NCBI GenBank assembly: GCA_965219095.1 | Contig: CBDCMT010000001.1 | Coordinates: 2,080,001-2,144,000, forward strand | Source of the DNA: Bdellovibrionales bacterium | GTDB taxonomy: Bacteria; Bdellovibrionota; Bdellovibrionia; Bdellovibrionales; UBA1609 | Length of the DNA stretch: 64,000 bases | Direction: 5' to 3' | In this document: positions 27,849 to 30,865 of the stretch, in pieces | How positions within the stretch are numbered: position 1 is the stretch's first letter | How the letters are laid out: each line of letters begins with the position of its first letter | Notes under the pieces: generated by a model | Databases searched by the model: none | Told to the model about the DNA's origin: nothing | What the model saw: only the letters and a program-made list of their open reading frames with translations | Translations under genes and position numbers: made by a program

Positions 27849-27881
27849 AGTCACTTTTAGTTTAGTAAGTGAGCCTTAATA

Positions 27882-28109
27882 ACCCGAGTTTTGATTTTTA
27901 TATGCTTCTCAGAAGCCTTTGTTCTTGAGTTTTAAGTTGAATGGAGGGTTTTTTAGGTTTTAAGCAAGTAAGAGATAAGGGTACCTAAAAGATTGACGAC
28001 AAAATTTTGTGGGCTACGATGACGAGAATACTCAAGATGAAACTCTCCGTTCAATTTAAAACTCAAGAACAAAGGCTTCTGAAAAATATATAAAAGTCAA
28101 AACTCGGGT
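27882..28109. mobile_element. IS982-derived 228-bp element made of two right ends
   Basis: acccgag...ctcgggt with about 60-bp IRs; TSD taata; both arms match the right end of 58514-59555. Confidence 0.85.
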
Positions 28110-28577
28110 TAATACTAACATTTTTACTTTTTATATCTTTCGGGGGATTTTCTTATGGAAACTTTATAAAGACAGAAAGTCAAAGCTTACTTTTACAAAC
28201 CTCATGGGAAAACCATGATTTTATGGAAGCTTCGCCATTAGCAGTATCATCAGCTAACGGAATCTTAAAAGTCAATGGAATTCCAGGAGAAGGATAATAT
28301 TCTGAATACTCTATTTACGCTTGCAAAGGAAGTCTCAAATTTCTTAAAAAATATAGTTGCCATCACTTAAAAGACGAAAAATTAAATAAAGAGGTTTTTC
28401 TTAAAGAAGGGGTTTATTTGTTAATTTATAGTAACACAGATCAATTTGTTGAGGTGACAGAAAATGCTCTAACCAAGTCAATCTCGATCAAATTAAAATT
28501 AATCTCCAAGGTGAAAAATACACTCTTTACCGGGATCTTACTATAGGGAAATGCAAAATTTGGTAATAAGAAATATA

Positions 28578-29714
28578 TAGTGCTTCCGTTTAGGTTTTCA
28601 GGTTTCTAAGATGGAGAAGTTATCAGTTATCAAAGTTTCTAATTTAGGCCTGTGTTTTCGTATTCCTCTAAAAAATTGACTTAAACTTCCCTTGAAATCG
28701 TCATAGTTTTCATAATATCGATTCGCCGTGACCTCTTTTTTCATAAACTTCCAAAGCCTTTCTATAGGATTTAAATTCGGTGAGTACGGAGGAAGATAAA
28801 CAAGTTTTATATTCAACTCTTTCGCTAACTTCTTGACAGACTTCGATCTATTGTATCCGGCCCCATCTAAGATAAGATGAATCTCTTTTTCATCGGGATG
28901 CTTCTTAATGAATATGATAGAGCATATCACATAGAAAAACTTCATTAACTGTCTTATAACTCCTGACTACCGTCTTCAAACTATTGATCTCAATAGCTCC
29001 ACAAACATTCACTCTTTTTCTCCAGCCTGAATTGGTCTTCACTTCAAACTTCTTACCCTCTCTTATCCAACCATATGAAATCGTAGGGCCCCACTCAGGA
29101 TGTGTGGAATCAGCAAAGTAAACAGGACCGTCTTTCTTCTTAATTCTCTTGTATTTACGCACAAACTTTTTCTGCTCTCCTCTCTTTGCCTTACCCGGTA
29201 TCGCTGTGGCTTTTTTATAAGAAAAACCAAGGCGATGGAGAAGATCAATCGCACCACTTGTTGAGTACGTAACACCAAAATTCTCCTCAATGAACTGAAT
29301 AACAGACTGTGATGACGGAAAAATTCTTTTTTCTAACTCCTTTAAAAGCATTTTCTCCTCTTTCTTAGTTAAAAAGGACCTTTTAGGGTTGTAATTGTCG
29401 TTGATTAAGCACTCTATCCCTCCTTTGTTATAACGATCTCTACAGGCTCTTATCGTGCCCTCATCAATGAAAAGAAAGCAGGCAATATCTTTACACAACT
29501 TACCTTTATCTAAATGGAGGATTGTCATAATCCTTTTTACGTATTTAAGATTTTTCTCTAGAGATAGTTCATAGAGTAAATCTTTTCGCTCTTTTTTTGA
29601 TAGAAACCCTGACATATGAAACTATTTTTAAAAATAAATGACTTTTTATCAAGGCCTTAGAATAAAAACTAGACTTTAACTCAAAAAAAACGGGAAATTT
29701 AAACGGAAGCACTA
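28578..29714 (-). mobile_element. IS630 type B, frameshifted copy
   Basis: IR tagtgcttccg / cggaagcacta, TA duplication; ORF split into 28905-29615 and 28598-28945. Confidence 0.92.
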
Positions 29715-29836
29715 TATATAAAATATTTATAGAAGAATTTTTCAGTGTAAAACTTATACACATATCTATCACAAATCACTTCAAACACGCCATCTCGAAA
29801 AAAATATAATTTTTATTTAGCTCATAGTGTTAAACC

Positions 29837-29865
29837 TTGATTTATAAATATAAAATATTTATACT
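29837..29865 (+). promoter_or_regulatory. Sigma70 promoter
   Basis: TTGATT (29837-42), 17 bp, TATACT (29860-65); predicted +1 at about 29872. Confidence 0.65.
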
Positions 29866-29872
29866 TATGTTG

Positions 29873-30346
29873 AATGTAGTGCTTGAAACGCAAAGGTTAT
29901 AAGGCAATTGAAGCGAGATTTTAAGTGAGTTGAATAGAGTAGTTTGTGCTATCAAATTATAAAGGAAAGGAGGTTAGAGTAATGTCAAAGTCAGTTTAAA
30001 AATCTTCTTTGCTCTAACTTTCTTCAAAATCCATGGCCTTTACTTCAACTAAGGTGTGTTGTCTTTAGGTTGAGTAACGCTATGGTAAAAGGCTAAAAGA
30101 AAGATTTTATAAGGTCTCTTTTAGCCTTTTTTTTGTACTGGCTACACTCAGCATTCATACTTTCCTTTATGGTTTAGCTTGTGTATTCGTTCTATCTATT
30201 TAACACGTTAAGGTGAGTCGAAATAGTGAGTTTTTTCAACTCATACCACTTTAGCTTTCAAGATAGAACTTTTTTTCGACTTCAGCGGTTTCTTTTCAAG
30301 AATTTAATGATTTCAAGTGGTTACGCAAAACCGTGATCACTACATT
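29873..30346 (+). ncRNA. Putative ~475-nt structured RNA of unknown class
   Basis: Terminal pairing aatgtagtg/cactacatt plus at least six nested helices of 7-14 bp, several with G-U pairs on the + strand; starts at the predicted TSS; no long ORF. Confidence 0.5.
30087..30134 (+). terminator. Intrinsic-terminator-like hairpin inside the putative RNA
   Basis: aaaaggctaaaaga / tcttttagcctttt 14-bp stem ending in a T8 run. Confidence 0.5.
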
Positions 30347-30396
30347 TTAAACGGTGCCTTATAGGATTTTTATATGATTTTAGGGGTTAAAACTGT

Positions 30397-30545
30397 ATAT
30401 TGCCCCAAATGTTGAATGGTTTTTTGGATGACTTTATTCTGCACTCTCTTGTTCTCTACAATCTGAGCTGAAATAGAACCATTCTTTCTTGGAATCTTTT
30501 TTACAAACATATTTAGTCGAACGTGAAAAATTGACAAAGGCCTAG
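30397..30545 (-). pseudogene. IS1634 transposase N-terminal remnant
   Basis: MFVKKIPRKNGSISAQIVENKRVQNKVIQKTIQHLGQY. Confidence 0.65.
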
Positions 30546-30689
30546 GATTTTTATGCTATATGATCTTTATCCCTGTTACTTTCTACTATAGAGGGTTAAA
30601 TATTTTTTCATAACTTAAAAAAACAGTAGTTTTCAAGAAGGCGTACAGGCCTTTTAAGCCATTTCAGTGAAAAAAATGAAAAAAGACGC

Positions 30690-30865
30690 AACCTCTAGCA
30701 TTAACTTTCTAAAATTTTGAGAAGCTCCTGATAAAAGACTATTAATAGCATCCCCTTGTGATCCTAATAAAAAGTTCCTTCCCATACGAGAATCTATTTT
30801 CATATGACCAATGATTGCCTCAACTGAACTTCTTCTTCTGTGAAGTTTTCTTTTGTATGGACTTA
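30690..30865 (-). pseudogene. IS5-subgroup transposase C-terminal remnant
   Basis: RRRSSVEAIIGHMK...LGSQGDAINSLLSGASQNFRKL. Confidence 0.7.

Follow-up and report, generated by a model that had tools for sequence, protein, structure and literature searches.

Within the 64,000-nt stretch analysed here (the window), the inner ~300 bases of an orphan segment (29918–30214) are predicted to fold on one strand in a way that masks a ribosome-binding site, and the longer RNA of 475 nt that had been proposed for this locus is partly an accident of an adjacent transposon end. We tentatively favour the reading that the core is a decayed mRNA, probably once built like the messages of type I toxins, whose protein-coding part is dead.

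The window corresponds to C2:2080001–2144000 in a 94%-complete genome of 3.11 Mb with 34% G+C, assembled in two contigs (C1 and C2). The segment lies within a heap of IS630, IS66, ISL3 and other IS pieces (27.9–37.2 kb), which is flanked by a sigma-54-activator-like gene on one side and by lptC-lptB-rpoN on the other. Its left border is formed by an IS630-family element on the minus strand (28575–29718), inserted at TA, with DDE_3 and HTH_33/HTH_29 domains and ~65–80 genomic matches along its length. On the far side of this element, positions 28109–28574 are what is left of a gene, now interrupted by the IS630 and by a 238-bp palindromic element (27877–28114, ~40 copies). Its family encodes proteins of ~280 aa that begin with a signal-peptide-like sequence, and the genome has five intact paralogues as well as several fragments. 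The core was considered as an extension of this secreted-protein pseudogene and the idea was rejected.

The earlier note had described a large non-coding RNA of ~475 nt, intact inside an IS graveyard. Compared with shuffled sequences, 29872–30346 indeed folds well on both strands, with a minimum free energy (MFE) of −133.7 kcal/mol (z −6.09) on the plus strand and −105.9 kcal/mol (z −5.05) on the minus strand. Of the 11 arm pairs listed for this RNA, 10 are fully complementary and the last matches at 8 of 11 positions in an ungapped alignment, but only four exceed a mean probability of 0.5 in the ensemble of the 475-mer: the terminal helix 29873–81/30338–46 (0.66), 29959–69/30160–70 (0.86), 29970–82/30009–21 (0.96) and 30087–100/30117–30 (0.94). 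Two listed arms, 30036–40/30051–55 and 30069–75/30146–52, have ensemble probabilities of about zero because 30031–54 pairs with 30063–85, and the pairing 29929–38/30195–204 attains 0.95 only in a fold without the IS end.

The statement that the region contains no IS insertion could not be upheld, as positions 30275–30515 belong to an IS-derived element of 394 bp, of which the left 240 bp are present up to its truncation by the next IS at ~30514. Hence the terminal helix, like the two outer ones, pairs with a transposon end. Fourteen other left ends of this element are found in the genome (30300–30349 has 16–17 further genomic matches), and its eight complete copies, 392–395 bp long, have terminal inverted repeats; direct repeats (15, 21, 88, 178, 202 and 467 bp) flank six of the eight. 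It thus combines multiple copies, terminal inverted repeats and long variable target duplications, as expected of an IS1634-like miniature element. Its transposase fragment, which had no Pfam hit, is presumably akin to the IS1634 family. As far as the accessible text of PMC2266710 describes them, IS1549/IS1634 elements generate long variable target duplications (8–514 bp, compared with 15–467 bp here) and have a consensus end that starts C-----YT, as does the miniature element, which differs in being an internally deleted, non-autonomous 394-bp form. Numerous genomic copies flanked by target-site duplications, which in the earlier note would have made the region an IS481-like MITE, were found for the IS-end part only, and there the element is IS1634-like rather than IS481-like. 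The 475 nt as a whole do not behave as a MITE: the core has two copies and no target duplication was seen.

Another repeat, a dispersed short palindrome at 30207–30255, lies outside the orphan core. It belongs to a family of 45–60 nt; of 15 sites examined, ~13 are further members (e.g. C2:95161, 416387, 1315665, 1746504 and 2361540), several of which directly follow the end of a gene and some of which are close to IS1634-like transposases.

Could a 475-nt RNA have co-opted the IS end for its closing helices? The z-score of the whole region would fit such a history and the junction between core and IS end is also present in the public sequencing runs X2 and X3. However, adding the 72-nt IS tail (30275–30346) to the core gains −7.8 kcal/mol, no more than 300 random non-coding tails (−7.5 ± 3.8 kcal/mol, 41% of them doing as well) and less than most of 13 further copies of this IS end (−4.6 to −9.6 kcal/mol). 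The terminal 9 bp are perfectly complementary, but the same nonamer occurs in other copies of the element, and the four private changes of the local IS end, three of which fall in MFE pairs, yield no net gain. With p-values of 0.04–0.10 for the outer duplex and a terminator-like hairpin 200 nt upstream of the proposed 3′ end, we regard this scenario as very remote.

The inner core presents a different picture, and the alternative suggestion of the earlier note, a self-sequestering mRNA, is supported by the predicted structure of 29918–30214. The promoter-like site, hairpins and helix arms described next are on the plus strand. Upstream of the core, the sigma-70 promoter claimed at 29837–29865 does exist as a TTGATT-17-TATACT site agreeing with the consensus at 9 of 12 positions, with the same boxes in the C1 copy described below and an A/T-only inverted repeat (29843–29863) within its spacer, but sites of this quality are not above chance density, six of them being found in 29500–30800 against 5.4 expected. 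The first hairpin, H1 (29969–30022; 14 bp, 3 G-U), has a probability of 0.93–0.96 in all three folds. In it, the Shine-Dalgarno (SD) sequence GGAGG (29969–73) and the first base of the AUG at 29982 are paired with an anti-SD (30009–22), so that in the predicted fold the SD is masked as in type I toxin mRNAs. The AUG opens a mini-ORF of five codons (MSKSV, 29982–29999). Its sequence is shared by the two alleles and by three public runs, which show no indel in this region; in agreement with the earlier note, there is no ORF of at least 50 aa inside 29837–30346. Hairpin H2 (30031–30085; 21 bp with small bulges, probability 0.80–0.99) contains a second AUG (30082) in its 3′ strand. Hairpin H3 (30087–30134) consists of 14 + 5 bp followed by U8 and resembles an intrinsic terminator, although it was not called as one by the motif pattern scan. 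With its A-tract ahead of the stem, the stem itself and the U-tract, it is similar to bidirectional intrinsic terminators, from which it differs in that the downstream segment pairs back with the leader. The 5′ arm of this long-range helix (29918–29969) terminates inside the purine-rich ribosome-binding region, in its upstream half, and the 3′ arm (30159–30214) lies downstream of H3; the duplex of 29918–29969 with 30137–30215 has an energy of −30.4 kcal/mol and comprises 36 Watson-Crick, 10 G-U and 1 A-C pairs.

The core (29926–30206) has a z-score of about −6, obtained with chosen borders. Tested against shuffled and genomic controls, with arms that had been picked from the fold, H1 gave p-values of 0.002–0.005, H2 of 0.001–0.003 and the long-range helix of 0.002–0.003; when the whole leader 29872–29969 was offered as a partner, the long-range duplex was no longer significant (p 0.37). 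These results have to be weighed against the reading that the locus is a neutral patchwork, in which remnants of a small gene (promoter, SD, terminator) and inverted duplications produced by template switching have come together between IS ends without any selected RNA. In an unbiased tiling with 280-nt windows (1690 non-coding, non-repeat windows on both strands, forming 447 clusters), the core locus ranked 34th of 447, outranked mostly by palindromes or terminators, which favours a patchwork. RNase P and tmRNA, however, ranked 44th and 48th in the same tiling; rank 34 therefore does not exclude a real RNA, and the core matches real RNAs in its degree of structure without being exceptional. 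The type of imperfect pair speaks against neutrality. Decaying inverted repeats in DNA should give equal numbers of G-U and A-C, whereas a strand-neutral alignment of the four helices yielded 87 Watson-Crick pairs, 17 G-U, 2 A-C and 4 other combinations. The G-U bias noticed earlier on the plus strand is thus borne out for 29918–30214, the excess of 17 over 2 having a p-value of 0.0007 against a 50:50 expectation and of 0.018 when the T/G-rich composition is allowed for. An automatic count over the whole region gave only 24:15, a ratio as weak as those for RNase P and tmRNA. The patchwork also draws some support from H3, whose stem is a common terminator shape: its 10-bp stem is also present at 83 unrelated sites across GTDB genomes, for example between convergent genes.

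The history of the segment bears on the same question. Positions 29715–30170 have one further copy in the genome (C1:39592–39135, 96.5% identical). On the left, both copies are joined at the same TA to an end of IS630 type, a different one in C1. On the right, the C1 copy breaks off at 30170; at this fold-back junction (C1:39135–39100), its own 5′ arm is copied as a perfect 22-bp inverted repeat before a microhomology jump into IS630 sequence. This junction, which reflects either real template switching or an assembly artefact, was not seen in the public runs X2–X4. A switch at exactly 30170 that creates a perfect inverted repeat is the kind of event that the patchwork invokes. Five public sequencing runs from two studies contain the segment, no RNA run being listed among them; four of the five were compared, and their contigs may merge alleles. 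The window allele was found in contigs of runs X2 and X5, and the C1-type allele with its left flank in contigs of X3 (to 30330) and X4 (to 30229), from which we infer that the unit formerly reached as far as the IS end and that IS activity either relocated or duplicated it. We rejected a simple long target duplication as the origin of the copies, because in run X3 the miniature element lies on the same side in the two alleles.

Differences between the copies that fall at paired sites all keep the pair (5 of 5 in the long fold and 6 of 6 in the core fold, against an expected share of 0.57), which argues against a neutral patchwork. Its case is helped by the failure to detect purifying selection or any homologue (see below). 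Against the reading as a decayed toxin-like mRNA, differences are not significantly fewer inside the RNA (9/299) than upstream of it (7/157; p 0.43), and the MFE of the C1 allele is average, 48% of random transition sets doing as well. With two alleles and eight substitutions, none was on both sides of a pair and none was compensatory. Overall, we consider the neutral patchwork somewhat unlikely, yet a close rival of the reading that we favour, as is the one discussed next.

In this second rival, the locus encodes a functional, lineage-specific small RNA of ~265 nt (29872–30134) or 340 nt, in which ribosome loading at the strong SD of the mini-ORF would open H1. The RNA would thereby work as a switch or a sponge, with no role for the peptide itself. 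With three stable hairpins between a promoter-like site and a U8 tail, the locus does look like an sRNA unit, and the constancy of the mini-ORF points in the same direction. There are also precedents in the available text of PMC3627812, which describes orphan sRNAs of Bdellovibrio, 98–655 nt long, that lack homologues elsewhere; the core is similar in size to the attack-phase sRNAs of Bdellovibrio bacteriovorus (merRNA has 445 nt) and is likewise lineage-restricted, intergenic and structured. It differs in having no match to the c-di-GMP-I riboswitch, in a search whose control matched nowhere; with the same reservation, a c-di-GMP riboswitch was rejected for this locus. Against a working RNA stand its location in IS debris and the C1 allele, in which the SD is weakened from GGAGG to GGAAG. 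Nor is there an antiterminator to compete with H3, the alternative structure (−58.9 vs −70.5 kcal/mol) being 11.6 kcal/mol weaker; this and the lack of an Rfam hit led us to reject an attenuator or T-box.

A further argument against it is the outcome of the homology searches. BLAST against 60 relatives, 108 genomes of the family, plasmids and phages returned nothing apart from short chance or terminator matches. A covariance model of 29962–30137, built from the two copies, detected no homologue in 108 genomes of the family or in samples of 150 genomes each from the order and the phylum (the samples overlap); in one genome, it matched single hairpins with 33 and 26 bits. When contigs from viruses, metagenomes and GTDB were scanned with six exact patterns, only unrelated genes or generic terminators came up, according to BLAST on all 114 loci and the covariance model on the five viral loci and 100 of the 109 others. 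Since the genomes covered included no other member of the genus and such scans detect only near-identical or luckily conserved relatives, homologues of the core are to be described as not found rather than absent. No Rfam family, including RNase P, tmRNA, 6S, OLE, GOLLD, ROOL, HEARO, riboswitches and T-box, reached its gathering score in the window, and the 12 sub-threshold matches at the locus (E 0.3–8.6) are all far below the cut-offs. The earlier conclusion that the region is neither RNase P nor tmRNA is consistent with the location of both elsewhere in the genome, as is a 6S-like RNA. The tmRNA (C1:51010–51361; Rfam, 140 bits) was missed by ARAGORN and the 6S-like RNA (C2:2206920) scored 38 bits, under the family cut-off. 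Searching the literature by text, not by sequence, we found no description of such an RNA.

Two RNAs associated with mobile elements were also rejected. For an OMEGA (IscB/TnpB) guide RNA, neither PF07282 nor PF14239 was detected in the genome (the PF14239 control matched nowhere) and the eight local frames had no Pfam hit. For an IS110/IS1111 bridge RNA, 29720–30270 had no BLAST match at the IS110 fragments, which are located at C2:1340063 and C1:173504.

Taken together, these observations make a functional small RNA with a mini-ORF unlikely, if only slightly more so than the patchwork. In its most far-reaching form, the core would be a free-standing, ribosome-operated RNA switch without a catalogued family: the doubly masked strong SD and the five-codon ORF would be kept for the act of ribosome loading, a facing promoter would be written into the start codon, and the read-through form would lock the leader. 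This we find improbable.

Strand-specific G-T pairs would suit single-stranded DNA as well as RNA, and rods of such a kind do occur in integrative elements of this genome, so that the core could be a single-stranded DNA signal (an Frpo-like promoter or a single-strand origin) left by a mobile element. We consider this scarcely credible: folds with DNA parameters are alike on the two strands (−37.0 vs −34.6), the SD and AUG are on the folding strand and not on its complement, a perfect −35 box falls in a loop, and no mobile-element gene other than those of IS is adjacent. The rods in question, outside the window, are imperfect, ~235 nt long and present in three copies that are 91% alike (C2:341881–342115, C2:1829661–1829900 and C2:1831061–1831340), two of which are the best-folding non-coding loci of the genome. 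In integrative elements, they immediately precede an ORF of 154 aa on the minus strand; the SD and start of this gene are paired within the rod, whose other arm has −35/−10-like boxes. We take them to resemble an Frpo-type single-stranded-DNA promoter.

We return to the reading that we favour, a relic built like a type I toxin mRNA. Transcription from the promoter at 29837–65 would start a plus-strand RNA near 29872, and during its synthesis the downstream anti-SD of H1 would mask the strong SD and the start codon. At about +260, H3 may terminate transcription or halt an exonuclease, and a read-through form of ~340 nt would lock the leader through the long-range 5′–3′ helix. On the minus strand, −35/−10 boxes facing this promoter (29956–29988) combine a perfect TTGACA over the start codon (29988–83) with a perfect TATAAT just before the SD (29961–56), separated by a non-canonical spacer of 21 nt. 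The non-repeat genome has 14 such perfect pairs with spacers of 10–29 nt, two of them in the copies of this segment, a pattern noticed post hoc. These boxes, judging by their sequence, are possibly an antisense promoter across the ribosome-binding site and could once have produced an antisense RNA over the leader; the predicted transcript covers the leader, is ~80 nt long, folds weakly (−4.6 kcal/mol) and has no terminator. As the AUG opens only five codons today, we regard the locus as most likely a relic, presumably duplicated and hemmed in by IS activity.

There is no ORF for a toxin that such a message would have encoded. A 41-codon stop-to-stop frame on the plus strand (30078–30203) is basic and then hydrophobic, has no start codon and is one base out of frame with the AUG at 30082; frames of this type occur in 5% of control windows and 11% of T-rich ones. 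A second hydrophobic stop-to-stop frame (29978–30052) also has no start, is one base off a nearby AUG and has counterparts in 12% of controls. Neither frame is rare in DNA of this kind. No homologues of the local frames were found in Pfam (eight frames), PHROGs (five) or Atlas (two), nor of the 41-codon frame by word-index and full HMMER searches, in which the two HMMER hits were tandem-repeat artefacts. An AGGAGG followed by an ATG with an ORF of no more than 10 codons is common in this genome (69 of 233). In a separate family of 53-aa proteins, encoded outside the window (C2:153633, C2:2025405 and C2:1154648), a strong SD, a signal-peptide-like start and a charged tail occur together, one copy having an early stop; a long hairpin follows the two loci viewed.

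The resemblance to type I messages concerns anatomy. According to the sections of PMC8594479 used here, the determinants of toxin mRNAs in T1TAdb are SD/anti-SD pairing, stem-loops, a 5′–3′ long-distance interaction and a length of 200–400 nt. The closest parallel is aapA/IsoA of Helicobacter pylori. As presented in the portions of PMC6733600 and PMC5416894 consulted, aapA3 contains one anti-SD downstream (aSD2) and another that is distal (aSD3), and aapA1 has a weak internal terminator before its true end, inactivated copies being common. The core shares with this system, as those portions describe it (PMC5416894, PMC6733600), a size of 200–400 nt, more than one copy, a predicted masking of the SD by a nearby downstream anti-SD and putatively also by a distal 3′ arm, a hairpin resembling a terminator ahead of the true end, and promoter elements that face the message where its ORF starts. 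It differs in several respects. Behind the SD there is no intact small hydrophobic toxin ORF, only five codons. In the form cut at H3 (29872–30136), H1 remains closed with a probability of 0.96, so trimming of the 3′ end is not predicted to free the SD as it does in aapA. Lastly, no structured antisense RNA is predicted, and the putative facing promoter has a spacer of 21 nt. No sequence similarity to type I toxin mRNAs was found in Rfam, Pfam or PHROGs. The locus thus fails membership of type I systems, as it lacks a toxin ORF and is predicted to have neither an SD freed by trimming nor a structured antitoxin, and given the matching anatomy we read it as a locus that may once have worked like such a message and is now dead. 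The hok/Sok system is another in which a type I toxin mRNA has a 5′–3′ long-distance interaction.

In IS-rich, AT-rich genomes, a high folding score over a hand-drawn interval may include transposon ends, and repeats should therefore be masked first. Should the RNA with its mini-ORF prove to be a working one, it would represent a new kind of ribosome-gated RNA. As a relic, the locus itself would matter little. Bdellovibrio is not named in the main text of T1TAdb, as far as the available part of PMC8594479 goes, and in a lineage in which we found no type I toxin-style mRNA described, the anatomy of such a message would provide a lead.
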